Shown piece by piece: positions 4,635-43,976 of a stretch of DNA of 44,554 nucleotides. The stretch's first letter is position 1; the number at the start of each line of letters is the position of its first letter. The stretch spans positions 1 to 44,554 of the forward strand of contig JYFJ02003250.1 in the NCBI GenBank assembly GCA_000934665.2, written 5' to 3'. Under the pieces are notes generated by a model that saw only the letters and a list, made by a program, of their open reading frames with translations, searched no databases and was not told the DNA's origin. Both the position numbers and the translations under genes were made by a program. Origin of the DNA: Catajapyx aquilonaris (lineage: Eukaryota).

Positions 4635-5766
4635 ATGAGCCACAGGTATTTTGAAAGTACTCCACATGCACAAGCATATGCTCAGTTTCGACCATGCATG
4701 CCGCAGTCATTAGCAGACAAAATTGTGTGGTTCCTGAAACAAGATGTAAGTTCGACACTGTTTATGGCTTGATGTGTTGCATGTTAGTGTCACATATACG
4801 ACAGTGTCCTAGTGTTGTGCCTTAGTATTCAGGTCCACTGAAGATGGCCATTGATGTGGGCTGTGGCAGTGGACAGAGCACAATGGCTCTGGCTACACAT
4901 TTTGATTACGTTTTGGGAGTGGATGTCAGTCCATCACAAATCGAGGAGGCAAAAAATAGAGTGAAACCACCTGATGTAAAGGGAAAGGTTGAATTCAGAG
5001 TGAGTCCTGCAGAAAAGCTGCCCATTGAGGATAATTCAGTGCAGCTGGTGTCAGCAGGAGTGGCTTTTCACTTCTTCGATGGAGCCCAGTTTATGAAGGA
5101 GGTACAGCGAGTACTGCAACCAAATGGAGTGGTGGCTGCTTATGTGTACAATTTCCCACGCCCACTTCACCCCAAGGGAGATCAAGTACAGGAGATGATA
5201 AAACAGGCAAGTGAGACGTACTTTTTTGTACATTAAAGTATTACTAAAAATTATCTTGTTACTCAGTTTTTCTTCAAGTATGCCTTTAGTGCAATTGGCA
5301 CTTACCCATTAATAAAGGACAAGTATGATGCTTTCACTCCATTTCCAGGAATGATCAAGTATGTCTTGCTTTTCATATGAGAAGACGAATTCTTCATTTT
5401 AGTCAACAATAGCAATAATTCACATGACTAATTTCTTTGACATAGAGATGAGAGTTGTTTTGCTGAACTGAAGGGTACTGGATTGACCTTGAGAGGTCTG
5501 ATGAGGTCATGGAGCAGTGTGGAAGCTTACTATCAACAGCACGGAGAAGAAGAAGGCAATCACCTGATTGGCACATTTTGCCAAAGGTTGGTGTGATGCA
5601 GCCTGCCTTTTTGTGTGCTTTTTCTCTAGGGTTACATTACCAACGTCTGCCTTTTCTTTCATGCTGCAGTGTCTTGGATGAGATGGGCGCCAAGAGTTCT
5701 TTAGAGGAAACACCAATGGAACTTGTCTTTCAATATGATCTTCGATTGGGCCGAAAACCTACATGA
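4635..5766 (+). CDS. Class I SAM-dependent methyltransferase, paralogue 3; exons 4635-4745, 4826-5206, 5267-5358, 5446-5586, 5670-5766
   Basis: MSHRYFESTPHAQAYAQFRP..., AIDVGCGSGQST, GVDVSPSQI, SVQLVSAGVAFHFFD...EVQRVLQPNG, ends LGRKPT*. Same intron positions and phases as paralogue 1; AATAAA at 5893-5898. Confidence 0.9.
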
Positions 5767-7704: not shown

Positions 7705-7938
7705 TTCTTCAAGAACGTGCCCTTATACAGGTATCAAAAATTCAAAATGTAATGTGACATCGCTCTTTGAAGAACATACTACACGCAAATCGGTCCTGTG
7801 AAAGGAAAATCCACGTCGATGTAAGTCAAGCCTGTCGGCTTATTCATTCTGACTACGATTCTGACTATGTTCTGCAACCTCACCGCACGTGTGGCATAAC
7901 TTTCATGCTGCAGCAATGTAATATAATCACATCGGGCA

Positions 7939-8228
7939 ACCGAAGCAGTTTGGAGTAGGGGATACGGTGTCCGATTGCTAATGGGGAGGTCCTGGGATCA
8001 AATCCCGGGGCCGGCAACTCTGACCGTGGTTTTCTGTGGTTTCCCACTGTCCTTCCAGGAAAATTCTGGAGTTGTTTCCGTAATTAATAGGCCACAGCCG
8101 CTTCCTTCCGTCCCTATATCCTATCCCATAAAGCGCAGTAAAATGAAAGCAAAGAGTTCCAGGCAAAACAAAACTTCCCCCCTAAAGAGCCGATAGGCTG
8201 ATAACGGGGTATGAATTATTATTATTAT
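7939..8228 (+). mobile_element. tRNA-derived SINE, copy 1
   Basis: Degenerate Pol III A/B boxes (B-like GGATCAAATCC), (ATT)n tail, 15-bp TSD TAATCACATCGGGCA at 7924-7938 and 8229-8243. Aligns end to end with the copy at 33508-33803. Confidence 0.9.
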
Positions 8229-8482
8229 TAATCACATCGGGCATGTCAATTGCGTCATCCTTACAGGAACAAAAGCGAAAACGAGGGAATCAAATGCCCG
8301 TTTCTTATTTTGTATCAACACTAAAACACAAGAAGTGCATAAAATATATAATTATAGTTTACTATGACGGTCACATGTAGAAACGGCCAATCCCACATCG
8401 CAAGAACAAAATTAATGAGCCAGTTCATTAGCTCATGAGAAGCGCTTGGTTCTCCAATAACGCACAATCGCAGTTCTTCCGG

Positions 8483-11400
8483 TCAGTAATGCCTGATGAT
8501 CAGCGTGGACGTGATCCTGGAGCTGTGCTCGACATGAAAGTCCTTCACAACCCGATAACAGGTGCACATGTCCTGAGCCACGAACAGAGCCGCGGACAGC
8601 GTCGTCGGGGGAGAGGGCAGGAAGAACGTCATGTGCAGAGAGTTGTGGTAATGCACGTGGGCCGGGCGCCCCAGACACTCGATCATGAGGACCTTGAGTT
8701 GATCCACTTCCCACGGGAAGTCCTCCACCACTTGGGCCTCCAGGTACAGGTGCACTTCCACCAGTCCCACTGGCTGCTTGTGCATTTCGCTTCCGATTGG
8801 CATCGGCGCTTCCTTCTTGGACTCTACCGACTCTTTCGACACGTTGCGTCTCCTCCTGAGGTACTCGTTCCCCAAAATCTCGGTCTCGGATTCGGTCTTC
8901 TGGACCCCCGGCTTCAGCTCCGACTGCCAGGAGTTCACGCTGGATGCTCGCAGGATGGACTCCAGGCGACCTCCGGGTCCCAGCACTGCCACTCGGTCGC
9001 ACAGAGCCTCGCAGGAACCCCAGCCAAGCCCGGAACCACTCCCGACCTGCCAGGGCGCACATGTTACTCCACCTGCTACTTTCAAGAAACAATTGCGCTG
9101 ACGATTAGAGCTGCATGGTATTACCAGGAGGATTCCCGATTTCCGCGTCTTTTTGAGCTCCCTGATGGCTCTTCGGAGGGACGCCCTTCCTCGGACGCTG
9201 TCGTGCAGGTCCCTGAGGGGATTGTGCAGAAGGACCAAGGGAAGGGTGCCCATGGCTGCCTGGGCGATCCGGAGGAGCTGCTGGTAGGAGCTGGCCAGGT
9301 GCCCAGTCCTGACCCTGAGGTGGGCAGGACCCAACCCGACTATTCTGGCCCACCTTTTGGCCTGCAGCCTGGACTCCCCTTCCTCCAGGCCCCGCATCAG
9401 GCCGATCATCCAGAGACTCTCGGCCGCGGTCAGCTCGGCGCAGAACCCCAGGCCTTCCCCGGGGCAGAACCCAACCTTGGTCGGCCACCCGTCCCCGATT
9501 CCGTCCACCCAGATGCCCATAGTCCGCCTCTGCCCGGACACTATCTCGGCCAGCCTGCTGGTTCCCTCGGGGTCACCCACCACGGCCACGCACTCTCCCT
9601 TCCTCTGGGCCAGAGACATTCCGTGGACCTGAAATAACTCGACGAGGGTCACGATGGGTCACTGCAGGTTCATCCCATTCCTCTTATTACCTGCCTGAGC
9701 ACCAGGGCCCATCCGCAGCCGGCTTCGACCTGGCCCATTTCCAGAAGTCGGTTGACCCTGTACCTCTCGAAGCAGGCTGAGCTCTGCCCGATCCAGGGCG
9801 CCCCTTCTGAGTCGGCCTCATCCTGGCAGGCTTCCTTCAGGCTGGAGGGCCTCCTGCGAGCTTTCTTCCAGCCCATCTTGCCTTTCCACCAGAGGAAGAA
9901 GGCCAGCAGCAGAACCTGGGAGACCAGCACGGCGCTGTCTTGAAACACCCCAGGAGCCTGTATCTCGACGCCCCGCTGTCCTCCACCGGCTGAGCGGAGC
10001 GCATCTTCTTCCGGCTCATCCTCCCAATCTTCCTCGCCCGTGTCCAATTTCCACCACTGGAAGTCCTCCTCTTTAGGGGCGCGCTTGTCCTGCAACACCC
10101 AGATGGAGTTCTCCTCTCCCATGTCCTTCTCTCGGTACTCGGTCATGTTCACCTTCCAAGCCAGCAGGCGGGACTGGTTTGCGCAGGGTTTGTCACCGCA
10201 GGACCAGGCTGTCGACGCATATAGTAACACAGAGGGATGTCACAATTAACAGGCAAGCTAATATAAACCACACCACTTTTCACTTACCGCAACATCGGTA
10301 GTTGGTGTTGGCAACGAAGTCCCGGCTGTACTTGATGGTGGAAGGGGGCTCGAGCATCTCGCAAGCGGTGTATACCACCGACTTTGAGAGCAGGTCGCAG
10401 CGGCCGTTCAGGGCCATCAGGAGGAGCAACCTGGCGAACCCGTCCCCGAGGGTGAATCCTGGGAAGGCGACCATCAGGACGATCCTAACAAATTCCACTA
10501 CTCTCCAGGGGATGCGGAGGACCTCGGAGTACAGCGCCCGCACCATGACAGGCGCCACGGTAGCGGTGCCGATGTGGAGAAAGGTGAGGAACGTCGTGCT
10601 CTTTCCGCCCAGGATCAGCATGTAGCCCCAGCCCCACATCAGCAGGCTGCAGATGCCAAGCATTGGCACAATCCACACCGCCACTGTAAACACCAACGAG
10701 TCGAAATGGCTGCAGCTGTAGAGTGGACATAACAGTACCGATGCAGGGGGAATCATAACTGCAGGTCGTCCAGCCTCCAGTGGCTAGACTGGCAGAAAAC
10801 AAGGCTACGATGTAGAGGTTAGAAATTCCGAGAAGCAAACTGCTAACGACTTATAGACGGCCATGAACATTGGGGTGCCCCTGATCAGATACGCACTGCC
10901 ACTCCCGCATTGCACCTTCACCACTTCACGCCTACATGCTAGACTTGTTTTGGGCCAATCCATCCACTGCCATGTTCCGAAAGACCGTGCACGTACGACT
11001 CCACGTCAAAAGAAAGTTGCGGACAGACGTGCCCTAGAAAGGTACCCCCTCACCCCCTGCCCTTGTCTAGAGTCCTGATGGTTGTTTATAAGGCGCCAGG
11101 ACACACACAGACGATGTCCGAAACTTTCTTTGACATCGACTACTCCTTCATGCGCATGTTGCGTATACCAAAGGCTTCTGGCTCAATGATATCGTTGTAA
11201 ATCAAGTTGACCAGGGAGGTGGCGACGAGGGAGATAGAGAGGATGATCGGCATGTGGGCCATCAGATAGGCCATGGCCATGGTCATCGGCCGGGATACGG
11301 GCGCGGCCATGTGGATGTGCATCGACAGGTTCCTCGCCTGCTTCAGAACCGGGTGCATCAAGGCACCGGCGAGCAGCGACATCGCCACGACTAAAACAAC

Positions 11401-14400
11401 CGTGCTCAAAATGGTGCAAGTCACCATCCTGCACGCAATAAAAATGATGTATAAATTTATACACTCTGAGGTGACACGTACGCTACAACGTCCCGTGTTT
11501 CCTGACTGACCTTGACCTCGGGGCGTGCTGCAGAAAGCCGTACTCGAGCTTGTCTAGACGCGGGAGGGGGTGGTAGATCGTCTTGATGGGATGGGCCAGG
11601 TCCTTGAGAAACGCCCTGCTCTGGGCGTTTGCCAGCGCGTCCATCTCCAGGTTGGCCGTCAGAGGGTAGTAAGGGTTGAAGTAGATATTGACGTCCATGT
11701 ACAGCTCCTCGTAAGCGTCGTGTTTCATGGTCAGCTCCAGCCCTCCCAGGCAGTGCCTTCGGTACCAGTCGGGATCGAGCTGTCCCAGTTCTTTCAGATC
11801 TGCTGCCATGTCTCCAGTGCCGTTCACAATTTTGACTAGGTTGCCTGCAACGGCGTGCCATAGAAAGTTAAGACAAGGGTACGTCGTGGTCCAACCCAAA
11901 GACAACGACGTGTGAACCCGGCTTCACGCTGTAATATACCTTGGAACAGCTCGGGGAAAGCCTTCACAATTTTACTAGAGACATTTCCGCCGGACCAGAA
12001 CATCATGGTCGGATCTTTGTACGCCTCCACAGTGACATAAGCAGGCGGCGCATCCCACGGGGTTGTCTTTGACTGCTGGTCGGACCCCACTTGAATTTCG
12101 TAGCCAACTCCCACGGGGTCTTCCGTGCCGGCCATCCTCATGATCACCGCGGCGACCACGAAGAGCAGCAGGTACAGCAAGATGTTCCAGGTGAGGGTCC
12201 AGGGGTTCCTCCAGACCTGGGCCACGCTCTTGAAGAGCAGCGCCGAGAACGGCCCGGTGCTTCCTCCGAGCCCGATCCTGGGCGGCTTCTTGGAGGAGGA
12301 CCACCAGGTGGTGTCCTCCTCGAGGGCCAGCAGGTCCTTCGCGTTGTGGATGCCCCTCCGCACCGCCTCGTCCAAGGTGACGTACCTGAGCCGCACCGTG
12401 GCCGAGGCCTCCAGATCCGGCATGGCCTCAATCAGCTCCGACCTCAACTGGGGCGGCACTATGGCCGCCTCGCTCTTCCCTTCCCCGAAAGTGTCCTCCT
12501 CGTCGTCCCGGTCTATCAGGTTGGCCGGCTCGGCCCACGGGAGGACCCTTTCCAAGAGACCCTCCGTCTCATCGCCTGCCACCTCAACCACGTACCCGGC
12601 TTCCACGTCCCTCAGAACATCCTTAGGACGGTGAGGAGGAAAACAAACGTCTGAGGAATGTCGGCTTCTCTAACCAACACAGTAGTAATGTACCTCAGGG
12701 GATCCGAAAGCCCAGAGGAACCGGCTGCGAAGAGCCGCCACCTTCCATCCCATCTCGAGGGCCTCCCGTCCGTCTGTGGTGGTCAGGACGATGGGAATGT
12801 CCCTCTCTTCGGACATTGACGAGAGGAGGTCGCGCAGCTGGCTCCTCTCCCTCTCGACCTCGTGATGGTCCAGGGAGGGCGAACTGGGCCAGCTCCAGGG
12901 CTCGTCTAGCACCGCCAGATCAGGGGTTCCCACCAGGCATATCCCGATGACCAGCCGGGCCTGCATGGCCGGAGGAAGGTCCTGCGCGGTCCAGCGGGAC
13001 ACGTGCAGGAGGGACAGCTCCTCCTCCATGCTCATGGCTTCAGTCAATGGGTCTTTCTCACCTCGAAGCTGAAACGGAATTGAAATTGCGCCGCGTACCA
13101 GCAAAAAAACAATATTATTGGTACACACCTTGGCGAACAACAGCAAGTTGTCCCTGACTGTGAGGTGCTGGTGGAAGCAGGAAGGGCCGAGGGTCAGCCC
13201 CACGTCTCCCCAGAGCACAATCGGGCCCAGGGGCCGCCCCAGGGACAACCTAGTTCCGGCCAGGGTGGAGCACAGAGACGTCTTTCCGGAGCCTTCCTGG
13301 CCCCACACCACAGTCATGGTCCCCTGCTCGAAGACGACCGTTTCGGTTCCCCTGAACGAGCCCCTGCTGCTGTCGGTGAAATTGGCCAGATGCAGCTCCA
13401 TGCCTGCCACGATCTCGCCCCTCAGGTGCGCCGGCCACGCCTCGGACACTTCCGGGTGCGGGTGCCGCACCAGGTGCATCACCCGAGCCAGGATGGCTCC
13501 CACACCCAGGTACAGCGGCACTGAGGAGGCCAGGCAGATCAGGGAGTACAACAGGCACCAGTCGTCCACACGGCCTACGCGGTCCACCTGGTCGAGGGAC
13601 GCTCCTTTGACTATGTCCTGCCAGTACAGGTTGTCTCCTGCGTCGGACCGCATGGACAAGAAATAATGTTGACCCTTCTGATTCATGACTGTAAGGGCAC
13701 TCAGCACATACCATTGATGTAATTCAATGCAATTACTTGAAGGGCGAAAATGAAGCTGCAGTGGGGGTGCAGGAAGGACACGATGAACTTTGCCCAGGCG
13801 ATGATCTGAAAGTAGTGGTCATGCAGCAGGCCAGACGAAACGTATCCTGCGACCAGCCAGGTCCCCACTGTGACGACCGTCCCTGCGAAAACTGACACAA
13901 GAACAGAGTCACCTCTCATCGGACCACCTTGCTGTTACGCTCACCTGTCCGGGTCAAGGCAACAATTATGGAGCAGAATGCCAGGTTGGACGCAGCGAAC
14001 AGGAGCAGCGTCACGAAGAGGAGTGAGCAGCTGGTGGTGTCCAGCGCTGCTCCGTTGCCTCCAGAGAAGTCGTAGGTTATGATCCAGCTGGATATGGCGC
14101 AGGAAACGGCCAAGGGAATAAAGGCGCCCAGGTACCAAGCCAGGTACTGCGTCACCTTTCCTGCTCCAGCTGCTCTCTCGGATTCCTGGACATAAATTAT
14201 TCAACATGAAGGCTGCTTAGTGGACGACCCTGGAACAACCACTTACCGCGATTCCGCACTCCCTCTCTTGCAAAATGGCGTGAACCAGGATCGCCCAGGA
14301 AGCCAAGAACCCGAGGGGAAAGAAGTAGATCAGGCAGGTGACGTGGGCCATCTTGGTGTCGCGTATCGTGCGGACGCGGGTGGCAGGAAACGGAATCGTG

Positions 14401-16135
14401 TAGAAAGAAGGCTACGGAATTCAACAGTGTGGTACTATAGTATATAGATGACAAACAGACAGCAAAGACTGGGCCAAACCTTGACGTAGAAATCCTGAAG
14501 TTCGGAGCAGTCGTCTCCATGACAATGCTTGGAGTAGTCCACGACAGGAATCCATTGCAGGAAGTGGAAGCGACGTCGAAATAGTCCCACCACTTATTAG
14601 TGGGAGGAAAATTATTTCGAATATTCGTTATGTAACTACGTATGTAAGGAGCCAGTGGTAGAGCAGGGCAGCCGGTACACTCCAATTAACGTGGTAACTA
14701 ATGCCGATTGGAGGCCTTCATGAGTCAAAAATTACCTCACTTGAAGGGATTGAACGAGTGTAACCAGTTTTTCGACTCTACCACTATCAGTACAACATTG
14801 TTATAATGCAACAGTCGCGATAAGGAGGATATACCTTCGTTGCTTATCTGCTCAGGTTCCAGATTCCAGTACTGAGACACGAGGCGGTTGCTCAGCTCGT
14901 GAAAAAGCCTGTATTTGATGGTGATCTGCGTTTGGTCTCGGCCGACATGGTCAGCGGTTTCGTTTGCCGTTGGGTCGTAGACGTACGCGCCTCCGAGGTA
15001 ATTGTACTCTCTGCTTCTGTACGCTTCCAAGAGGAGATCTACCATTTCTTGCTCAGTCTCGACCAGCACGATATCTGAAAAATCACGTTTATGACGCATC
15101 CGAGCGAAATGGCACAAATGAGGGGTGTGGTGGGAAAAGGTGATAACCCACAAAAGTGTAATTTTTCAGGAGAGCGAATTGAAGTTTGCGTTCTCTTCAC
15201 AAATCTGCGACTTATGATCGAGTCAATGTTGCCTTCTCGTGTATATATGATACGTCTTCAGAAAGTACTTACGCTCTTTGGGCAAAAGCAGGCTGTTTCT
15301 GGAGAGATTCTTCAAGAGGTCGTCGGTTGGTCCGTAAGCCATCTTCCACATGAGAGCCTTATGCTGTAGACTCTGCTCGAGGGTGGCACTGGCCACGTGC
15401 TCTGCATCCATGGTATCATCTTCCCGCGTCTGGATCGTGTTCCTCAGAGGAGACAAGTATGGCCTGTACCCTACATCACCCGATTCCAACACCTTCTCCG
15501 GAATCTGATGCTTGTCGTTCACCTCAGCTTCCAGTAGTACTGGCTAATGAGACAAGTAACATGACGCAACGTCTTTCTCATTGGTGCCCGAAAGTGTCAA
15601 GGGGTGGAATTTTCGTCCCACTGCCAGTTACTACTTAGCAGTGCCAATGCCAACACTGGTACTGCTAAGTTAGCAGTAACTGGCAGTGGTACGAAAATTC
15701 CACCCAAGAATAATTTCTTAGCTCCAACTTGGAGGTTATGTGTACAGTACAAATCCTTCAGACCCATGGACTAGCTCATTATCGCGGAATAAAAGGTGAA
15801 GACAGAATAAAACCACATGTAAATATACCTCTAGAGGCTCAGTGACCTTGTAGACAAAGGCTGGCGATTTGTGTCGTACGTGTACGACCAGTCCTGCCAT
15901 AATAATAGGAAACAACAGTTCGCAGAGGAAGAGGAGTCGAAGGCTCCGTCGTCGAGCCCATTGCTTCCAAAGGAGGGCCCAAAAAGGGGCTCCGACTGGC
16001 CGACCACCGTACTTGACTCCTTCTGTTTGAGAGAAGGACAAGACCACATCACCCCAATGCTCATCCCTTCGGACACTGCCTTTCCTCATCCACATACTTA
16101 CCATGAACGTGAAGTTTGTTGCGACACAAAGCCAT
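8483..16135 (-). CDS. Full-length ABC transporter, subfamily A (TMD-ECD-NBD x2), highly divergent with degenerate NBDs; multi-exon
   Basis: ABCA-type N-terminus FWALLWKQWARRR...ELLFP (15880-15990), ILQERECGIA|ESERAAG, NBD1 Walker A GQEGSGKTS, LTVRDNLLLFAK|LRG, LAVLDEP, AFGSPE|DVLRDVEAGY, second-half FSALLFKSVAQVWRN, NBD2 GECVAVVG ... CEALCDRVAVL, stop at 8483-8485. Probable ATG at 16135 (MALCRNKLHVH). Hand-joined exons keep frame with GT-AG introns; a few donors in the first extracellular domain are weak or uncertain. Confidence 0.85.
15602..15705. mobile_element. 104-bp hairpin MITE in an ABCA intron (possibly PIF/Harbinger-type)
   Basis: Arms GGGTGGAATTTTCGTCCCACTGCCAGTTACT... / ...AGTAACTGGCAGTGGTACGAAAATTCCACCC, nearly fully palindromic, with AAG on both flanks (15599-15601, 15706-15708) as a 3-bp TSD. 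Confidence 0.7.
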
Positions 16136-16289: not shown

Positions 16290-16582
16290 TTTGCATGGTA
16301 GAGTTTACAAATTAATGTACGGTGCTTAGTACAAGGAAGCTCCATATATTCGTAATTTCTCTCAAAAACAGATTGGGAGTAAATTTCAAAATACACTTTT
16401 CAAGATGGCAAGGCAAGACATAATAGACGCCGGTCAACTTACACAAGGAACATATTTTATCGATAAATACGAAAAAGTGGCATGTGATAGTAGGGCTTAA
16501 GCTTTTCTGTTATTATTAACTCGCATAGAATAATATTTGACATAACAGCAATGTTACTCATCGACGTAGTACGTTTCAGTTT

Positions 16583-18726
16583 TCACTCAAAGTTGTTGTA
16601 CGTCTCGAAAGCTTCCAGGAAGTTCAATGCGCAGTCGTAACAGTGTCTGTACTGCTCCTGTTTTTTAAAAGGAAGAAGGACACAATCATTAATGTATAGG
16701 ATTGACGAATGTATAAAATAATAGCCTACTAACCACATTTGGGATGAAACTTGTATGACTTTGCCGAATAATTTTTGCAGCCAAGTAGACATCTACTTCT
16801 TGCTCCAACTTCATCTTGTCAAACACAAATGATACGCCGGCAAATAGACCGCAGGCAGAAGCCCCATCACTAATAGAAGAAACAGTTAATAACAATCAGA
16901 ATATGAACGAATAACTGTACATGATGACAATCCATAACTTTTTCCTCTCTCCCCTTGAACAATGCTGTTTTTCGGTACAAGTTGACTTACTAGCAAACAA
17001 GGGTGATTGGACCACCTCTAGGCGGATGCACTCTTTCCAGCACACAGTACAAGCTTAGTAGGTCTGAACTTGTGGGCAAATTAGACGTACGATTCCATCC
17101 AGGGAAGTGAAGCATGCTGACCAGACGAGATCTTTCAGCCGACTTGAATGAACGAGACTTACATTAATGAGTCCGATAACACTTAAGCTTTCCACTTACA
17201 TTGTCACTGTTGGTCATAGTGATCTGTCTCTGAACAATATTCAGTGGTGTCGACTCTTCTCTGACTTCCAGTGTCAGACAATCGAAACTAATGGGAGCAT
17301 GCTTGGGCCAAAATATCGGCGTGTTCTACAAATAAATAGAGACAGTAATTGGTTTTGAAGAAATGCACTTATTAAAGGGCTTCCAACCTGATTGTATTGC
17401 TCCGGTTCTTGCAAGACAACAATCGTGTGAGACTTGTGCTCGTAGACCATTTGCCAGAAGTGACTTTGAGTGTGTGGTAGAGGCAGCTGGGTGGCTATGA
17501 AGCGATTGATGTGTTGATAACCATTGACTGAAACTGCATTGATGAAGTTGCCTGCTGGACCACTCTCATAGGACGAGATGAATATCCGACTGTGAGGCCC
17601 TGGATATATCTCTGGGACCCGGATTTTCTCCAGCTCTTGCGGGATGGGTGTCTGGTTTTTAGGCAGCTTAAACCTGGTCTCCTCCAGCTTCCGGAACTGT
17701 TCGTCCATGTGCATCTGACCTGTTCTTCCTGTTTCTGACTTCAGAAGTGGAAGTCTGTTCCTGAAGTCAGTGCAAGGTATGCTCCAATTCTGGCCGAACA
17801 GAACTTCGACCAAGGTCAGGTGAACGAATTTGTATTGCTCCTAGAAATTTAATGAGAGTGGAGAGAAAAATACTTATTGTTTACTCCAGCAACCATTTTA
17901 AATAGGAGTAAAAGTGCACATGTCTTTCATTGTTGCTTCTGGTTTCTGATTAAATCCTCTTCTCATCGGCCACAATTCATAATTATAGTTGCGGCATGAA
18001 AATAAATCGCGAACACTTACATAACTGTCGATCATATTAGGTCTTTGAGTCCTCATAGTGCTGAAATGTTTCAAGCAATCGATGCTTGCCTCTGCCGCTG
18101 CTCTCTTCAGCATCGTGTCCAGAAGTATGATTGTACCAGTTCGACCAACACCAGCACTGGAACCAGTCATTCTTGTAACCTTGTGTTACAGACAATTATT
18201 CTAAAAGAATCTTAGTACCTGCAGTGTACGAGTATTGGTCCAGGCCCTGATGGAATCAGCATAAGTCTCTTGGCAAAAGATCCGACTGATTGGGGGTAAA
18301 ATGGGACTCCGTGGTCGGGCCAGGATGTAAAGTGTGCGTGTATCACCTATTCGTGACACATATAAACATAAAAATGGTGACTTATGTTCACTGTATTTTG
18401 TTGGCTGACTGTGGAGGAGTATTCATACCTGACGTTCTTTTCCATTCTTCTGAACAGTCAATTCACGGATAATGTAGTCGGCCAGCAGGATGTTTGTTTT
18501 GAAATACGTGATCTCTACCTCTCCATAGCATTCAGTTTGGTTTTCATTGGGCCAGTATTTCTCACACTTTTTCTGAACAATATGAACATTAGTAGAATAT
18601 AAAACGTGGCAGTAGTGAAAATTAAAATGGGAAGTCTTATGATGGTGAGCAGCTTGGGTGCGATGAAAAACCATTTATTATTTTTATACTTTTTCGAAGA
18701 AAAAAGTCTTAGGCCTATAGAACGGC

Positions 18727-27950: not shown

Positions 27951-30900
27951 TCACTGAAAATTGGCGTAGGTCTCGAAAGCTTCCAGATAGTTCACAGCAC
28001 AGTCGTAGCTATAGTTGTACTGCTCCTGTAGGAAAAGAATCAGTCGCATTTCAAACCACGTAATGTTCACAATACATTAAAGGCAACTGCTGCTGAGACT
28101 ACTCACTTCATTGGGGATAAAATGAGAGTGACTTTGTCGAATACTCTTCGCGGCCAAATAGACATCGACCTGCTGTTCCAACTTCATTTTGTCGAACACA
28201 AAAGACACTCCGGCAAAAAGACCGCATGCTGTGGCCCCATCGCTGCAACAAGTTTATAACGAAACGTTATTCATGTACTGCACTAGATTATGCATTACCA
28301 ATATTTCATAGGAATGCTACTGACTAGCACACAAGAGTGATTGGTCCTCCACTTGCAGGGTGCACTCTCTCCAGGACACAGTACAAACCAAGGAGACTCG
28401 GATTTACAGGCAAGTTTTGCTTCTGAGGCCAGTTCAGAAGGTGAAGCACATTAACCAGGCGAGGCTTTTCATTCGGCTGGAAAAATAAGCAATGAAAGAC
28501 ATGCCCACATTTTAAATTCATAGTTAGTGTTACCCTGTCTTGGTTCCTCATGAGTATCTTCATGTGAACAATATTGTCGTCTGATGACTCCTCCCTGAGT
28601 TCCAGTCTGACATACCCGCGTGTGATGGCTGCTTCGGTGGGCCAGAAGATCGGTGTATCCTATAAGTCACAAGTGTCCAATTAGCAACATTGTCCCTCAC
28701 TATTGACAAGCCGCCTTCACCTGATTGTTTGGATCCGGTTCCTGCAAGACCACAACAGTGTGTGACTTTTGCTCGTAGACCATCTGCCAGAAGTGGCTCT
28801 GAGTATGAGGCAAAGGCAACTGGGTGGCAATGAAGCGGTCCTTGTGCTGGTATCCGTGGACAGTGACAGCGTTGATGAAGTTGGCTGCAGGACCGCTCTC
28901 CATAGAAGAGATGAACACTCGGCTATGGGGTCCAGGGTAGATCTCAGGGACTCGGACCCGTTCGAGCTCCTCCGTTTCTAACCTTTGTTCCAGAGGCAGC
29001 TTCTGCTTCTCCTCTTCCAGCTTCAAGAACTGGTTGTCGATTTGCGTCCGACCTGTGTTCTCAGATATTTCTCTCAAGGCAGGCAGTCGGTGGTTAAGGT
29101 CGTCGCAAGGGATGCACCAGTTCTCTCCGAAGAGTATCTCCACCAGGGCAATGTGCACGAATTTGTATTGCTCCTGCATAACAGCGCAGTTTGATTAACG
29201 AATAAAACCAGTGAGATTTGAACTCACGACTCACGTTATTGTCCACCATGTTCGGTCTTTGTGACCTGATGATTCCCAAGTACTTGAAGCAATCCACGGC
29301 CGCTTCTGCTGCAGCCATTTTAAGCATCGAGTGCAGGAGGACGATGGTGCCAGTGCGACCAACTCCAGCGCTGAAACGAGCATTTTTTTTTAAATTTAAA
29401 AAGGTTGTAATGAATATCACCATTGTTGTCACTGTTGTTACCTGCAATGAACGAGTATTGGTCCTAGTCCTGGAGGAAGCAAGATGAGCCTTTTGGCGAA
29501 GGATGCGACCGTTTGAGGGTACATGGGCACTCCATGATCAGGCCACGAAGTAAAATGTGCGTGGGTAAGCTAAAAAAAAACATCATTTTGATATTTGAGT
29601 GTGCAATAAATTTCAAGAGAAATACTATTTGTGGGCTCAACCTCTCTGTTTTCTCCGTTCTTCTGCACCGTAAAGGTGCGGAATGTGTAGTCAGCCAAAA
29701 GCAGGGTTGTTTTGAAGCAGCTCACGGTCACGTCACCGTATGTTTCGGTTTTGTTTTGATCAGGCCAGTATTTTTCACATTTAGGCTACAAAACATTGTG
29801 AAGGAGAATGATATTAGGCTCATTATTCGATACACTGTTGTACTTTTATACCTTTCCACTTTCAATCAGATTTGTCACCATGACAATGAGGTTCACTTTT
29901 TCTTGCCAAATCATCCTCCAAAAGTCGTTGATGGTGGTAGATTTCGGCCCCTGAGTTGCAATGTAAGCTTTTGGCATATTGTATCCCTGGAAAAATAAAA
30001 CCATTTTATATTTTAAAACTTCGAACACTGGAACACTGATTGATAGGCTTTTATTACATCCAGATAGTTTGCGTTGATATAATCGGAGAAGTTGTTTCCC
30101 GGAAGCGGCTTCAAAACTACACGACTGTGATCATCTGCAGAGAAAAAAATGAACAGGTAATACCTGAAAGTGATTTTCGTACACCACGATACGTACATGC
30201 TACCAAGTTTCCGTATCGGTTCTTCGTTTTATTTTGCGGCAATTTCCCGTACTCCCAAGGTTTGGTTTGGCCCCTCGGGAATATCTAAAAGCAAGCGTTG
30301 TTTTAAGTTCCACAATACACTCCCCCATCAACACAGAATGTCACCTCATGCTGCCTTTGCAATTCTCCAGAGTCAATTCCGTCCTCCACGTACTTCTCCA
30401 GATCAATCAATTTTACTCGATATGAGCACGATTCCAGGGGAGGCATGGCTGCCATATCATTCGTCTCCACTCGATGATCTTGAATCACTTGGGGAAGCTG
30501 CTCATCATCTTCCACAAAGTTGTCTGAATAAATTCGTGTCATTAGATACATATCGCAGACTTTAATCACTGACAACTACATGCATTGTCGTACCTTCTGA
30601 ACGAGTGCGATCTAGGTTGTTGTAGGCGGGAAGAGCGATCTTTTCTCGTGATATTGACCTGGCAGCGTGTTTTTTTCTGCACACGTGAATAATAACATGG
30701 GGATGAATCACACATAATGTCATTGATCTTGGTATAAACTCATCCTATTACCGGTAAAGAAGAACTGATCCAACTGCAATGGTGACTAGCAAAATCATGA
30801 TGACAATTCCTGCGATTAGACCAGAGTCGGGTCCTCCTCCTCCTCTTTCTGATGGCGGTGATGGCGTCGTTGGAGGGGGTTCCTTTCCTAATGGCACGAA

Positions 30901-33900: not shown

Positions 33901-36483
33901 TTCAATCACCTGTGAACTGCCTGACTGCGAAAAAAATAAGAAACCACATCAGAATGCATCTTTCTCCAGTAGTTCCTCTATTGCGGCGTCTTGCCCAATG
34001 GCATGGGGGAAGACGCCGCATTTGCAGAGTGTTCTTAAAAATTGATAAATAACACTTTCCTTTTCCTTTATTTACTTTTTATGGTGTAGGCCTGTAGCTA
34101 AAGTTTCGTAGAAGATATCCCTCTATTGGTGGTATTGAGATTGATTCATTAGATTTGCTTTTGCACCAGCGTAAGTGCTTAACTGCGGCGTCTACTCCCG
34201 ACTTACCTTATCGTATTTTCGTTTTTCGAAGCCAACTGGGCTTACCTCGTAATCGTACGTCCTCTTAGTTTCTGTGGCTGGAATTTCTTCAAAACGAGGC
34301 TCTCCATATCGGCTGACTCTTAGTATCGTGACGATGAATTTGTCCATGATTCCGTTAAGAATGTCCGGGTGTCCCACACTCAGACTCACCAGGTTTGTTG
34401 TTTTAGCGGTGATGTTTAAAGATGAGGGTGGCTCCGGAACTGCGAAGATTTACACCATTACATTTAGAGTTAGTGTCAGGGGGAAATGCATTACATTTTG
34501 TCACTTACTTTCTTCCCTCGTCGTAACGGAAACAGTTTCTGCCATCTGCCCATTATCACTTACGTTAAAATTCCTCGCCGTTATCTGGGAATAGGTAATA
34601 TATAGTTTACTCAAGGTGAAAATGTCACACGCTATGAATAAAACTAACGGTGCATAATAACCTAGCAGTAAATTTTCACCAGTTACTATTCCCGTGCAAA
34701 AAATTCCATGCCAAAACACTGTTTCTCACTCTAAAAATGGAAAGCAGCTAAGATTTTGTCCATCACAGCCAGCTACTCTGCTGTGTAATCTACCAGAACC
34801 GAAGGGAAAATCACTTAGTAAGTCAGTTTTACACGGACACCTAAGTCCGCCATAAATCTGTCCTAAGTCCGTGACATACATTCAGGCACATAGTGATTTC
34901 CCCCTCGACAAGAACCCTTCATTTTGATCGGCACCGTTAAACAGTCCTTCATTGTGTAATGAGACTGCTGTGGTGTGTTTGTCAATGGTGCACGAGTAGA
35001 AGCAAGTGACAACTCACCTGAACTTTATAGTTCACATTGTCCCTCAGTTCCTGGATGGTGGAGCAAATGAGATCATCCCACAAGGCACAAGGTTCAGGCG
35101 GGGTGTACTTCTGGTTATTGCAATAGCTTCCTGCGCAATTATATTGTCTCTGGGCGTTGAGGTCATACCCTTCCAGTTCCCCTTGTGGAGGCCAAGGATG
35201 TGCCCATCGGACAGATATTTGACTCCTGCTCTTGGAGTACACTGTCAGGTTGCGCACTGCTGGTGGGGCTGAAAAGAAGTGGTCGGATGTTGAAGGTAAC
35301 AGTTGGAATTGCTTGCTCATTTTGCATGCAATCATTTTCATCTGACCTGATGGGGGTAGTCTCTTCACCTTGATTTCCAGCTCATTTCCTTCACGCCCTT
35401 CCTTTCCGGCGTTGACTAGAAACACTGTAAGAGTGTAAGTAGTATACGGTATCACATTACTTGCTACCCACTGAATGTCGGTTATGTCTGTGGGCTCCTT
35501 CACTTCATTGATCCAAGGATCTGGGCTCGTCAGTTGCACCCTGTAGTGAATCGGTCCATTCCAGAGGCGACAATCTGGAGCCTTCCACCTGAATGTCAGC
35601 GTCTTCCATCGCGCGGCGTATTGGGGCTCCTTGCTGTCAGGCAGAGGCGCTGATTCGGGCACTAGGTCAAAGGTGATGGGGAATAAGATATATGTTTTTA
35701 TTCATATCCGTCGTCAAATCCTGCTGCCGATGCCAAAGAAGCGAGATCTGAATTGTAGCTTACCCCCTAGTAGAGTGTTGAAATATTTTTCTGTTCCATT
35801 TCCTTCTTCTACAGTGTAGGCTGCAACTACAAATCCGTACAGAGAATAAGGACGCAAATCTGACAGAGTATAACTGGTCTCCTCGGTTGTGGCAGTAGAT
35901 TTGGTCATCTCCTTTGGTGGAACTACTTGTGGGTTGCAGGAGTTACGTGCATAAAGCTAAAAAATTATTATCGAAAGAAATATTGAGAAACATGACAAAG
36001 TAAAATCACCACTCTATTTACGTACAGCCGTACGAGACGTACGGCTGTGTATGAATTTCTCACCCAATAAGTGACAGCGTAGTGTCGAACAAGTCCGTTT
36101 GGCATGTCGGGTGGATCCCAAGACGTTTCAAGAGACACATTGGTTCGCGACGTAGCTCTAAGGTTCTGCACTGGTCCAGGAGCTGAGAAGCAAAGATGCG
36201 TTGTTGTAATGCGATTACAATAATGTTGATGCTCAAAATATTTTAGTAAGGAGCATACCGGCTTCTTTAGTGGTTGCCTTTGTAGGTTCAGATGGACTAG
36301 TGAAGGTGCTGTGATCGACAATTCCTCTGACTCGTATTTCATATTCAGTGAATGGACTCAATCCTACGATCAAAGCTGGAGATTCTGGCGAAGCAACACT
36401 ACCGCTGAATCTCGTCATCACAGATATGGCAGATATATTGTATCCCGATATTCGACAGTCGTCGTCTTCTGGCGCAGAATTCT

Positions 36484-36546
<63 letters not shown>

Positions 36547-39500
36547 ACAATGCTGTGATGATGGGATAGTGGTGATGTTAGATGTTGGATGATGATGATA
36601 CGAAAAGGTTTTTAATATGGTAAATGAAATTAATTTATTGCATACCACCCAGGTGACAGTTATGGATTGCGAAGTTACGTCGTCTTCCTTGACTAACACC
36701 CCAATTGGTGGATTTGGAACTGAAGGAGAAAGCAATGGTATTTCGTATATCCCTAAATATCGTCAATCATTATTCTTACAAGGAATCAGAGTCACTCACT
36801 GGTACAAGAAGTCTTGTATTCGGCTTGAGGTATTCGATCACCGTCGTACATATTCCCATCGCTTGTTCTCAATACGACACGCACAAAGTACTCTGTGTCT
36901 GATCTTAACCCAGACAGTTCGTATCGGGTGCGATTGTCGTAACTAGCGATTTTTTGCCATTTTCTTTCCATCCATGTGGATGTCGCGTCGTCGACTCGCT
37001 GAAAACAATAGGGGAAAAGTATGCATATCGGTCCACTCAAAGGGTCCATGTCACTGTCGTCACTTGAGATGATCAAGTGCGGCATATACCGACCTTGAAC
37101 TGCACTCGGAATTGTGTTGGGAATCCTTCCCCTTCGAAATGTGCAGGAACGATCGGAATGGACAACTCCAGAGACCGTGACCCTGCTTCAGATGCGAGTG
37201 AAGGCGGAATGTTCAAGTAGGGATAAGCTGCAGTTGACAACAGAATGAAAGTGCAGTAGTTAATAGTCAACAAGCCACATCAGCTGTACGAGAATAACCA
37301 TCACTCGCAATAATACAGTAATAGCTGCTCACTCAATTTGCAGACTGGAAGAACGTATCCGGGCTGGCATCCTCCTGGACAGTTTCCGGTGTAAATGTCA
37401 CAAAATCCGGAGCCCGAGCAGTTCCCGCACTTCTGTTGGCAGCCTGGACCGTAGTTTCCATTTCGACACACTTGCAACAGAAGGAGAGACATGGACTGGT
37501 ACATTGTGCTGGGTTGCGTAGATGTAGCAGATAGTAGATGTTACAAGAAACTACGAGTAGTAGTGTGCACGATAGAACTACGTGTCTGTATACTTACATG
37601 CCTGGCATTCCTCATACTTATATTGCGTCCAGTATCCCGATGCGCAGGAACACAGTGTTGGAGGCGACGCTCGACACAGCGTGTAACCCTTGCAGTCATT
37701 ACCTGTGCAGGTGCCTTTGCAGTCCTTCCCAAACAAGCTGCGTCCACACCCTGTAAGGCACAATATTGTTATTCTGGAACTGAAATATTTGATATTGAAA
37801 TTTGTCCGCACGAAAACTGTGAAGTCAAAGTGAAAAGTTGCTGCTTCAAAAATATTGTTGTTATGAATGTAATAAACTATCTTAAGAGTATCTGCTCACC
37901 AAATTGGCAACGATTTCCATTGAAACCGGGGGGACAGAGACACACACCGTCACCACATGACCCTCCGCTCAGGCACTCGCGGTCACACTTGGCTGGAAAA
38001 TATAATTATATACGGTAACTTATGCCTACTGTGTATAAAGAGCTACAAGTAGGGCTGGATTGGTATATACCACAGGCCAGGGATTTGCTTACAAGGCAAG
38101 TTATTGTTATTGGTCAGCAGAAATCGAGGCAGAAATATAACCTGACAAGTGGTAAGAATAATTACTCTGAAAAACCAGAATCGATTATGCAGCGGGAGCC
38201 GAAGGTGCTTATAAGGATTCACTTTTTAAAAATCATCACCACTAACTGTAAGTGCTACGTGCTAAAGCCTATTTAATTGACGTCCCATTCAGAAGTTACT
38301 AGGCTTCTGCTGATCATTAACAAAGGGGGCAACCACTTCCCGAATAGGTGTACCAGTACATTGGTTCTTAGAACTGTGTGTGGCGGAACCATGTTTCCAT
38401 GTGGATATTTCTGGTTCTATGTCGGTTCCACCAGCTTCCAGAAAATGCATGCATCCTAGTGGTCCCACATTGTTCCCACAAAACCATGTTCCTTATGAAT
38501 CCCATAATAGTTCAATTAGGAGCCACGTACACTACGGAATAGTTACATTCCGGTTCCACACTGACCTGTACAGTAGGGCGGCTCGAAAAACACTTTTTTT
38601 CGAAAGTTGTAGTTCGCTAGTGAAAAAAAGTTGTGTTGGGCGATCCTTTTAACAGGTAAAAAATCTGAGTCATGTGGGTTAATATCCTACGGCTCCGCCA
38701 GGGGCGTAAGTGACGCAACTTCCGGTTTTTAGTTTTTTGGTGTGTGAGTACACTTACCCGGCCTAAACATGAAAAGTTGTGGCCCCCCGGGGGTGAAATG
38801 TCGTTATTTTCGCGATATGTTGCACCGTTGACGAGATATTGACCAAAACCCCAGGTTCAAAAAAACACCGTTCTGCAAAAAAAAAACACTCTCTTCGCTA
38901 TTTTGAAAACCTTTATGTGCTTTTTATGGATTTTGGGGTGCTGAATCCGAATCCGGCAACAGATTTGCTCCATCACGTACAGCTTTTGAGATATATCGTT
39001 TTAAAACTTTGGACGGTTTACTAGGGGTCTTTCCGAATCAAGTGGGCCTAAATGTTGTTAGACCGCCTCGGATCTTTGTGAAAATAATCACAGATGTACT
39101 AATCTATTCCTTAACGCTTCCTATAAAAATTCAGCCATATTGCTCAATACTATGATGAGGGGAAAAATCGCAAACATCTGGAAATGGCTGAGAATGAGGC
39201 CTTTTTTGGAGTTTTTTTTTCGGTTAGTGCAAGTGGTCAAACCCCAATGAACATATATATCAAAAGAAAGGGAAGCACCAGGACAATGCGCCTATGGAAT
39301 TAGTATTCCTCTAAAATGTAAAAAAATATTTTTATAGCATTTCATTGGTCACTTGCACAGTCACATGCCCAAGAATATATTGTGACCTCAACATGTTCTG
39401 CAGAAAAATTCTATTTTGGATAAAGGTAGATGCACTATATAGATTAAGGTGTGCTGAATCCAGATCTGAAGTCAGAATGGCTCTATCACGTACATATTTT

Positions 39501-42500: not shown

Positions 42501-43833
42501 CAAGTAGAAGAACTTCTCTGAAAATTAATGTTGTACTTGTACTGTATGATGCATTCTACTAAAACATGCCTATGACATCACTTTTGATTTGGACTCCTTC
42601 CGGATAAGTAACTCACTAGTGCTCAGTTTCCATGAGAGTGGAGTTGTGCCATAATAACCCAACCCAAATGAGGAGTACTTCACATCAATGGTCTCTCTGC
42701 GCTCAACATATTTAAATATTTCCTGGTAAGGAGCAAGTGATCCCAGTCGTACTGTTTTCTCTTGATATGAGAGCCAGAAGTGTCTCCATTCATTACTGTT
42801 CAGGAATGTTCCCTGCAGAGAAAATAACAGCATATTAATTTAATTGTATTAAGGATAGGCTACTCTTAACTGAAGGATTAAGGATTATATTGTCATCAAG
42901 TCAGAAATGAGTTGAATTTTAAGGAGGCGGAATGCTAGGGCGGAATGGAGCTTCGGAAACATACTCTCCCACGGATGGAAGACCTGGTCTGTCCCCCCTG
43001 GGTCATCTCTGCTGGCTCCGTCTCGGGGCGGGATATCCCACGGCCTTTCGAGAGAGCATCAAGCTTGCTCTCTCGAAAGGTCGTGGGATATCCACTCCTC
43101 TAACCACCCGGGGAGTAAAGCCACAAAATGACCAGGACAGGCATTGCACAATGCACAATTGCACATGCTTCTTGCACAGCCTCTCCCTGTCACCATACCC
43201 TTCCCACGGCCCGGATACACATCTCAAGGAGGTTATCATTGCGATGATGGTGGTGGTATAGTGGTGGTGATTTCCACCCCATTAGAAATATGAAAATATC
43301 CGTTTATTATTATTAATTATTATTATTACACTCTGCACTCACCGCTTTGGCAGCATGCCAGTTTTGCTTCGGGTTCGTGTACGAATAACTTCCTCCACGT
43401 CGCCTTCTCAGAGCGGCCCTTGCATTGTCCCATCCCCCAATGATGATCCAGTAGTGGTCGTCACTCTCGTCTGGTCTCTCCTCAGCAGCAAGAAATACGA
43501 AAGCATCATCAGTCCCTTTCACAGAGAAGGATATGTTGTAGGCGTTTGTTGGAACAGACTCGGTTACTCTATTTCCTTGCCTAATGGTTGTCCCATTGAT
43601 TCCTGGAACGCAAGTAGTTTTTAGGCTAAATCGTCTTATTTTTTTACTGCAATGTTTGTATAATGACAGTAATGCAGCCATACGTTCCCATCTGACGTCA
43701 GTGATCGGGGGTACATCCACTTCCCAGCTGGACACCACTCTCCATCCCCCTTCCAATGTCCACGATGACGATGGACAGCCGCCTTCCGTGTTCGGGTCAC
43801 ATAAGAGCGTTCCTTGGCTGCTTAATATTTCAC
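27951..43833 (-). CDS. Receptor-type protein tyrosine phosphatase, paralogue B (MAM-like domain with FAMeT-like insert, Tie-like EGF x3, 6 FN3 plus membrane-proximal domain, TM, PTP D1, pseudo-PTP D2); 5' end not resolved
   Basis: D1 motifs [47 protein letters not shown]2 LVCYDGATACG. Ends FETYANFQ* (stop 27951-27953). [23 protein letters not shown] (about 30755-30820); FN3 exons about 32150-37230; EGF exons 37333-37470, 37598-37750, 37900-37992; N-terminal exons 41802-41940, 42300-42517, 42617-42812, 43343-43602, 43684-43833. Exons between about 38000 and 41800 are uncertain and no signal-peptide exon was identified. Confidence 0.88.
32584..32984. mobile_element. Possible degenerate hAT-like MITE in an RPTP-B intron
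   Basis: CAGGGGCGTATAGC (32584-32597) with 12-bp inverted match GCTATACGCCCC (32971-32982). No TSD seen. Confidence 0.3.
33508..33803 (+). mobile_element. tRNA-derived SINE, copy 2 (antisense in an RPTP-B intron)
   Basis: A-box-like TGGCGGAGGGG (33521-33531), B box GGTTCGAATCC (33565-33575), (ATT)n tail, 14-bp TSD AACTGCCGAACAAG at 33494-33507 and 33804-33817. Same 5' start ACCGAAGCAGT as copy 1. Confidence 0.92.
36484..36546. repeat. (GTA)21 microsatellite abutting a splice acceptor of RPTP-B
   Basis: Perfect trinucleotide array; on the - strand it reads (TAC)n-AG|AATTCTGCG. Confidence 0.95.
38571..40508. mobile_element. 1.94-kb fold-back non-autonomous DNA transposon with about 820-bp inverted arms and TA TSD (Tc1/mariner/pogo-type ends)
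   Basis: TA|CAGTAGGGCGGCTCGAAAAACAC... and ...GTGTTTTTCGAGCCGCCCTACTG|TA. Arms 38571-39393 and 39687-40508 are near-identical reverse complements around a 293-bp spacer; no transposase ORF. Confidence 0.93.
41425..41579. mobile_element. piggyBac-type hairpin MITE in an RPTP-B intron
   Basis: ATAA|CCCTGTAATGCCC...GGGCATTACAGGG|TTAA. Long internal inverted repeat TGGGTCATATCTGGCACACCATTTAGTGCAATTT / AAATTGCACTAAATGGTGTGCCAGATATGACCCA, with a local duplication of AGTGGGCATTAC in the right arm. Confidence 0.75.
42987..43142. other. GC-rich extended hairpin (28-bp core stem, 7-nt loop) in an RPTP-B intron; structured RNA, pre-miRNA or repeat candidate
   Basis: GGATATCCCACGGCCTTTCGAGAGAGCA (43031-43058) pairs with TGCTCTCTCGAAAGGTCGTGGGATATCC (43066-43093) with one G-U. 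Flanks can also pair (CTCGGG/CCCGGG, TGGCT/AGCCA, GGTCAT/ATGACC, GTCTGTCC/GGACAGGC). Confidence 0.6.
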
Positions 43834-43976
43834 CTTTCGAGATATAAGTATGCATGATTGAGCACTCGAATTAATTACTGTGTTCTAGATGCAGCATTAT
43901 TTTTCAAAAAGTGCAATAAATAACAGACGCAAAGTAATGAGGAGTACAGTCACTGAAAGAAGTAAGGTATATAGAG

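Follow-up and report, generated by a model that had tools for sequence, protein, structure and literature searches.

ATP-binding cassette (ABC) transporters build each ATP site from both of their nucleotide-binding domains (NBDs): one NBD contributes Walker A, Walker B, the Q-loop and the H-loop, and the other contributes the signature motif. The Q-loop glutamine, the H-loop histidine and the signature of the partner domain are needed for hydrolysis. To our knowledge, no ABC full transporter lacks a hydrolysing site altogether, and this holds also for the channel CFTR and the regulator SUR. Here we analyze a 44,554-nt stretch of Catajapyx aquilonaris DNA (contig JYFJ02003250.1; hereafter the window), which carries on its minus strand an ABCA-like gene in which both sites appear to have been dismantled.

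The gene shares with the canonical ABCA proteins (ABCA1, ABCA4, ABCA7 and Drosophila Eato; structures 7tdt/5xjy, 7lkp/7e7i and 8edw) the domain order and the long loops after transmembrane segments (TM) 1 and 7. It also shares CEALC in NBD2 and, as judged by eye, seems to share a stretch of the "GY" type after NBD1, and these proteins are among its best matches in solved structures. However, the similarity is very low (24-31 bits), with none of the catalytic motifs in NBD2 and only Walker A and Walker B in NBD1. A full motif set is described in the available text of PMC5844305 for NBD1 of Eato, CED-7 and ABCA1, and Eato with both Walker A lysines mutated gives no rescue (PMC11900885, as excerpted); therefore, canonical ABCA proteins depend on those residues.

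Transporters with a single degenerate site may be the best analogue of what NBD1 of this gene can still do. In such a composite site the P-loop is kept and the hydrolytic residues are lost, and ATP is bound and hardly hydrolysed (PMC7756269, available text). They comprise all ABCC proteins including CFTR and SUR, TAP1/2, ABCG5/G8 and, according to the same text, a subset of human ABCA proteins. An earlier note on this DNA had assumed that canonical ABCA proteins keep both sites, which is too strong given that subset. The known cases retain one consensus site whose hydrolysis drives the cycle, whereas the second site of the present gene appears to be wholly gone. The available text of PMC7756269 describes single degenerate sites only and does not contain the phrase "two degenerate", and no ABCA degenerate at both sites was found in the literature searched (titles and the starts of abstracts, with subscription journals outside the scope). 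The new point is the loss at both sites, and not loss in an ABCA as such.

Motif losses in the two nucleotide-binding domains

In NBD1, Walker A (GQEGSGKTS, 13302-13276, minus strand like all motifs below) is intact and has its lysine, and Walker B (LAVLDEP, 12918-12898) keeps both the Asp and the catalytic Glu. The remaining elements are lost. The Q-loop position reads LTLGPS (13197-13177) and its Gln is gone; the Gln column holds Pro in the MAFFT alignment, with Ser one column on, and Gly in the 63-sequence alignment. The signature has become LPPAM (12978-12961; SGG to PPA), the H-loop reads VLTTTD with Thr for His (12789-12772), and at 12897-12883 the D-loop is changed, with an insert of about nine residues after it. 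These losses are concordant across HMMER alignments to ABCA4 and to an archaeal MalK-like NBD, a MAFFT alignment of both NBDs with nine NBDs of ABCA-like library proteins, and column counts over 63 sequences. Of 38 columns with at least 80% conservation in the 62 other NBDs, NBD1 keeps 22, and Walker A and Walker B are complete among them; identity to other NBDs in the remainder of the domain is only 24-33%. Its PF00005 score of 30.4 bits lies above the curated cut-off of 25.

NBD2 has lost every one of these elements. In place of Walker A it has GDPEGTSR (9577-9554), one residue short and devoid of the Lys; the Q-loop is GFCPGE (9472-9455; Gln to Gly), the signature LASSY (9298-9278; SGG to ASS) and Walker B LVLLHNP (9238-9218; Asp-Glu to His-Asn). 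The D-loop is changed and the H-loop region (9046-8999) has no His. Four columns of the 63-sequence alignment in the H-loop area consist of intron-encoded residues, and the spliced MAFFT alignment was trusted there. The landmarks KGEC and SCEALCDR are kept in the alignments to ABCA1 and to the MAFFT set. Of the 38 conserved columns 12 remain, and taken together the two NBDs are 15-33% identical to other NBDs. The motif states that the earlier note had called in both domains, kept and lost alike, were all recovered in these alignments. Against PF00005, the family that it had proposed for a check, NBD2 (14.8 bits) falls below the cut-off that NBD1 exceeds. Walker A and Walker B have been retained selectively, being intact in NBD1 only.

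Because each ATP site is drawn from both domains, neither of the predicted composite sites has the canonical catalytic set, as the earlier note had argued. Site 1, formed by NBD1 and the NBD2 signature, has Walker A and Walker B and lacks the Gln, the His and the partner signature; in site 2 every catalytic element is absent. Site 1 would therefore at best bind ATP stably, and site 2 would have nothing left to work with.

A working ATP-driven pump, with site 1 hydrolysing through non-canonical residues and NBD2 acting as a structural partner only, appears improbable on this evidence. Known transporters of the one-site type retain, at the active site, Gln, His and the signature of the partner, and here all three are lost (Gln replaced, His to Thr, signature ASS); in ABC ATPases generally, the H-loop His and the signature are required for hydrolysis. 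In favour of a pump, NBD1 keeps the Walker A Lys, the Walker B Asp and the catalytic Glu, and a single degenerate site is a common feature of functional transporters, among them the human ABCA subset mentioned above (PMC7756269, available text).

Canonical motifs were also looked for elsewhere. A six-frame scan of the whole 44.5-kb window found one Walker A pattern in the gene, that of NBD1, and no other; neither NBD yielded a canonical signature, and CPQ was absent from the coding frame of the gene. The one SGG-type match inside the gene lies in exon 6, within the first transmembrane domain (TMD1). The Walker B pattern used was too strict and missed the confirmed Walker B of NBD1, so that part of the scan is uninformative. 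These results bear on the concern that the gene model is an artefact, i.e., that the true transcript uses other exons with canonical motifs or that the locus is two genes. The model was built by hand without RNA support, and its start codon, exon 4 and the acceptor of exon 13 are uncertain. Against an artefact, the scan shows no canonical alternative for Walker A, the NBD signatures or an in-frame CPQ, all degenerate motifs lie within long continuous exons, and the introns in or next to the NBDs (60-95 nt) are too short to hold hidden NBD exons. None of the weak points lies within the NBDs, and we regard this explanation as very improbable.

Gene model and ABCA architecture

The minus strand of the 8-16 kb region is a chain of long open frames, and its G+C content is 0.50-0.63 compared with 0.35-0.44 in the surroundings. 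The model was obtained by reading the three minus-strand frames against the sequence by hand, with the first in-frame ATG, at 16104, as start, and was then checked by script. The gene spans 16104-8483 (7622 nt) in 16 exons and 15 introns. Its features are as follows:

15829..16104, minus strand: exon 1; first in-frame ATG, ABCA-type N-terminus and TM1 (residues 58-76)
15273..15543, minus strand: exon 2; extracellular domain (ECD) 1; phase 0 in, phase 1 out
14835..15074, minus strand: exon 3; extracellular domain 1
14480..14592, minus strand: exon 4; the least certain exon, its frame picked as the sole one matching both flanking phases
14247..14411, minus strand: exon 5; TM2, with ILQERECG at 14276-14253
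13945..14185, minus strand: exon 6; TM3-TM4; PF01061 (20.2 bits) and PF12698 (14.1 bits), both below cut-off
13712..13882, minus strand: exon 7; TM5 region
13129..13637, minus strand: exon 8; final TMD1 helix and first half of NBD1 (Walker A, Q-loop position)
13069..13128, minus strand: intron 8; 60 nt, in frame and stop-free, GC 0.40; AlphaFold predicted local distance difference test (pLDDT) below 50 there
12694..13068, minus strand: exon 9; second half of NBD1 (signature, Walker B, D-loop insert, H-loop)
11940..12621, minus strand: exon 10; ABCA-type stretch after NBD1, DVLRDVEAGYVVEV (12621-12580), linker, TM7 (12183-12127) and start of ECD2
11511..11844, minus strand: exon 11; extracellular domain 2
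11169..11428, minus strand: exon 12; TM8-TM9
10288..10758, minus strand: exon 13; TM10-TM11, with FPGFTLGDGF at 10465-10436
9691..10208, minus strand: exon 14; Cys-rich loop, acidic insert, TM12 and linker to NBD2
9125..9628, minus strand: exon 15; NBD2 with Walker A position, Q-loop, signature and Walker B
9047..9124, minus strand: intron 15; 78 nt, in frame and stop-free; pLDDT 32-37 in the model there
8483..9046, minus strand: exon 16; H-loop region without His, linker, C-terminal regulatory-type domain and TGA

All 15 introns are GT..AG with consistent phases at each junction in the scripted check, and they measure 60-95 nt except for four of 198, 242, 285 and 410 nt. The spliced model has 1897 codons without an internal stop and ends in a single TGA at 8485-8483. 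The earlier note had reported no stop or frameshift over about 7.6 kb and an intact full-length ABCA-like gene, and both claims are borne out by this model and its ABCA-type domain order. Of the interval it had given (8483..13400), the 3' end was right and the upper limit was not, as the gene reaches up to 16104. The raw open reading frames (ORFs) of 382 and 391 codons run through introns 8 and 15 because both introns are in frame without a stop. Exon 13 has a second in-phase acceptor 39 nt downstream (exon start 10719). The following variants were rejected: a 23-nt intron between exons 7 and 8, which is too short and was replaced by a 74-nt GTATGT..CAG intron; two alternative reading frames of exon 4, which are incompatible with the phases; and a 5' intron immediately after the ATG, which is out of phase.

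The domain order is TMD1-ECD1-NBD1-R1-TMD2-ECD2-NBD2-R2 (R, regulatory domain). Hydropathy peaks fall at residues 58-543 and 934-1475, and the NBDs at about 565-790 and 1520-1730, giving TMD-NBD-TMD-NBD on one polypeptide. Loops of about 250 and 180 residues follow TM1 and TM7, and there is no hydrophobic segment in 77-323 or 953-1131. The gene is collinear with ABCA full transporters, with hydrophobic segments at the ABCA positions. We take the two loops to be shorter than those of ABCA1, and ILQERECG in exon 5 presumably lies where ABCA proteins have a conserved EKE-type stretch after TM2. The weak ABC-2 membrane matches of exon 6 fall short of the Pfam cut-offs (26.9 for PF01061 and 31.6 for PF12698), exon 13 has no ABC-2 match in Pfam, and exons 10 and 16 match no Pfam family at E up to 1. 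In the regulatory part, for which the Pfam family PF23321 (R1_ABCA1) was considered, the GY-containing stretch after NBD1 was recognized by eye only. The Atlas clusters nearest to exon 10 carry PF26955 (ACT_13) in 16-52% of their members, which is a lead only. A family-specific motif C-terminal of each NBD is an ABCA trait in the available text of PMC2680897.

Among solved structures, NBD2 matches ABCA1 (1.1e-6) and ABCA7 (8e-3) best, and NBD1 matches an archaeal MalK-like protein first and ABCA4 second (1.9e-5). The structure prediction suggested in the earlier note was carried out with AlphaFold2, and both NBDs model as ABC folds. NBD1 reaches a pLDDT of 83.1 and a predicted template modelling score (pTM) of 0.82, and in the NBD2 core the means of 10-residue blocks are 85-97, except for one block at 66. 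The domain after NBD2 is beta-rich in the model (pLDDT 53-78), and low confidence coincides with the intron-encoded stretches. Each model matches NBD structures of ABC proteins, and ABCA1 ranks fourth among those matched by NBD2. The models show that the sequence is compatible with the fold, which is not proof of it.

Searches for relatives returned little. With HMMER, 1.84 billion representatives were searched exhaustively; this yielded 91 hits at E of 1e-3 or below, and none below 1e-10. The five top matches that were inspected are generic bacterial NBDs, and only a few of the 91 are eukaryotic ABCA-like proteins. A word-index search with the NBD1 ORF among longer proteins gave no match. The exon of a neighbouring phosphatase gene, which scores 75 bits in Pfam, was likewise unmatched, so that the word index says little about animal proteins. 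Since the libraries seem thin for animals, the lack of a found relative does not mean that the gene forms a unique clade. Of two metagenome scans, the first found nothing and the second gave one match of 31 residues at 44% identity with no other matching segment, which we take to be chance or generic. ABCA-like library proteins with several NBDs reach PF00005 totals of 187-383 bits, far above the scores of the two NBDs here. By contrast, the neighbouring genes score normally in Pfam (Y_phosphatase 70-75 bits over about 80 profile positions, Methyltransf_11 67-82 bits); the divergence is therefore specific to the ABCA-like gene. On its sequence, the gene is strongly diverged from all ABCA proteins in the searched libraries, and its frame, splice sites, topology and codon bias appear to have been kept.

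Frame integrity and codon usage

The five other frames of the spliced model contain 18-76 stops each, compared with none over the 1897 codons of the coding frame. In 500 shuffles of each kind, the mean number of stops was 64 when all bases were shuffled and 51 when shuffling was within codon positions, and the lowest count was 34. Of the 17073 possible single-base changes 647 (3.8%) create a stop, which for 5,691 coding sites amounts to about 216 stops per unit of neutral divergence. By this arithmetic, an unconstrained copy is expected to gain stops after about 1-2% neutral divergence, indels uncounted. The motif losses each need several substitutions and therefore accumulated while the frame was kept, so nearly all of the NBD divergence would have arisen under frame protection.

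Codon usage points in the same direction. The G+C contents at the first, second and third codon positions (GC1, GC2 and GC3) are 0.59, 0.43 and 0.77, and GC3 is 0.78-0.85 in exons 8-16. In comparison, the introns of the gene have a GC of 0.46, the flanks 0.39-0.40, and neighbouring ORFs a GC3 of 0.42-0.66. Isochore composition or biased gene conversion should lift introns too, and a long-dead copy should have relaxed. The bias is limited to exons and third positions, and therefore it is no regional composition effect and has not decayed. The open frame and the GC3 of 0.77 versus 0.46 in introns argue against a long-dead pseudogene.

It is harder to set aside that the gene is a pseudogene of very recent origin or without expression, or a duplicate nearing loss. 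In this case constraint was relaxed, the motifs were lost, and the gene is now silent, its frame still open because little time has passed. Mammalian ABCA pseudogenes, transcribed or decayed, are paralogues that lost their function after duplication, and they carry stops, frameshifts or truncations, unlike the present gene with no stop over its whole length. Several observations would suit such an origin: no RNA run covering the gene was found in the sequencing-run search, the closest homologues among the 1.84 billion representatives are generic NBDs, both NBDs lie far under normal ABCA scores for PF00005, some splice sites are weak, and high-copy repeats lie in introns 1-2 and immediately 3' of the stop. 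However, the frame is open where shuffles hold 51-64 stops, GT..AG and phase are kept in 15 of 15 introns, and GC3 has not relaxed toward the value of the introns (0.46) or of the flanks (0.39). Walker A and Walker B of NBD1 are intact in a domain that has otherwise diverged to 24-33% identity. Additionally, the substitutions that removed the motifs would have occurred under frame-preserving selection, and only the last small fraction of the history could be neutral. We therefore consider a recent or silent pseudogene unlikely, though it deserves more weight than either a pump or a model artefact.

The gene is single copy. A DNA contig spanning 8203-15143 has a depth of about 30, equal to that of the flanks, and no second copy at least 90% alike was found among the assembled DNA contigs.

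Genomic neighbourhood and possible role of the gene

Repeats and other genes lie close to the ABCA-like gene. A very high-copy repeat occupies 7938-8230, directly 3' of the stop, with a summed contig word depth of about 100,000 compared with about 30 for single-copy DNA. A GGTTCGA-type stretch in its loose-end consensus sequences resembles a tRNA box B, which suggests a short interspersed nuclear element (SINE); ARAGORN found no tRNA in this repeat, and Rfam gave no matches in the window. High-copy elements also lie in intron 1 (15602-15705) and intron 2 (about 15119-15175), and that of intron 1 has an inverted repeat of 34 nt (94% complementarity) around a 36-nt loop, similar to a miniature inverted-repeat transposable element (MITE). 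Only about 190 nt separate the ABCA-like ATG from an AATAAA upstream of it, near 16290.

Upstream, two tandem paralogous receptor-type tyrosine phosphatase genes lie on the minus strand, one at 17274 to about 24170 and the other from 28324 to about 37190. Their exons include some of fibronectin type III and some of Y_phosphatase type (the latter with 70.6 and 74.9 bits), and exons 17274-17840 and 28700-29194 are closely similar. In spliced contigs from one run, 16432-16656 is joined to 16733-16833 on the minus strand, and a further joint lies at 17325/17388; 76 and 62 nt are skipped, with CT..AC on the plus strand. Contigs of this run cover none of 8404-15072, to which we give no weight in either direction. 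The segments 16432-16833 and 17325-17388 are probably the last exons and 3' untranslated region of the neighbouring phosphatase gene. A long trinucleotide repeat at 36233-36762 (minus strand), encoding poly-Leu or poly-Tyr depending on the frame, lies in the region of the second phosphatase gene. On the plus strand, tandem class I S-adenosylmethionine (SAM)-methyltransferase exons at 834-1223 and 4826-5236 (Methyltransf_11, 66.8 and 82.4 bits) have similar sequences and are probably a local duplication. An ORF at 43313-43870 (minus strand) has a farnesoic acid O-methyltransferase-type domain (PF12248, 37.9 bits). This domain, the receptor phosphatases with their fibronectin repeats and the short introns would point to an arthropod genome.

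On balance, we lean towards reading the ABCA-like gene as a fast-evolved ABCA paralogue specific to its lineage, which may bind nucleotide at NBD1 and would have no hydrolytic pump cycle. A number of observations weigh against this. No orthologue or paralogue was found in the searched libraries, which look poor in animal proteins, and no RNA run covering the gene was found. Pfam recognizes NBD1 alone and is blind to the membrane and regulatory domains and to NBD2, whose 14.8 bits are under the cut-off of 25, and the AlphaFold models rest on bacterial NBD alignments and contain intron-encoded residues. Deviations from the consensus occur in exon 4 and at a few splice sites (AATAAG, GTTTGG, GTACAT). 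The 5' exons are less codon-biased (GC3 0.53-0.66), and GC-rich codon usage by itself reduces the frequency of stops. A 401-codon frame is also open on the plus strand at 8432-9637, antisense to NBD2, which we attribute to the GC-rich third positions of the coding strand and do not regard as a gene. The DNA contigs of three runs show no differences and no heterozygous sites over 8203-15143. Finally, the catalytic Glu is still present in NBD1, and residual hydrolysis at site 1 is compatible with the sequence.

The earlier note had proposed a non-pumping ABCA, with receptor, scaffold, channel or lipid sensor as candidate roles. What stands of this proposal is that neither site has a canonical catalytic set and that NBD1 alone keeps nucleotide-binding motifs; the absence of pumping itself is as probable as the paralogue reading above. 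For such a paralogue, general ABC enzymology suggests that a canonical hydrolysis-driven cycle would be impossible. NBD1 might hold ATP, or nothing, as a structural or regulatory ligand, like the degenerate sites of CFTR, SUR and TAP, and its membrane and extracellular parts could make the protein a non-pumping lipid-binding facilitator, a receptor or a scaffold. More tentatively, the gene might be a pseudo-transporter that is kept by selection with both hydrolysis sites dead and only the P-loop of NBD1 left. It may then be highly expressed, given its GC3 of 0.77-0.85 in an AT-rich genome, and serve as an ATP-sensing or ATP-stabilised lipid facilitator, a receptor or a decoy.

If the gene is a silent relic, it only illustrates the length of time for which a codon-biased frame can remain open. 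If the non-pumping paralogue is real, it would be a natural counterpart of the laboratory Walker A double mutants, and the ABCA scaffold would have a function that is independent of hydrolysis. If it has been maintained, the gene would separate the capacities that belong to the membrane and extracellular architecture of ABCA proteins from those that need ATP turnover, and lipid binding, scrambling, and receptor or scaffold functions are candidates for such ATP-independent roles.

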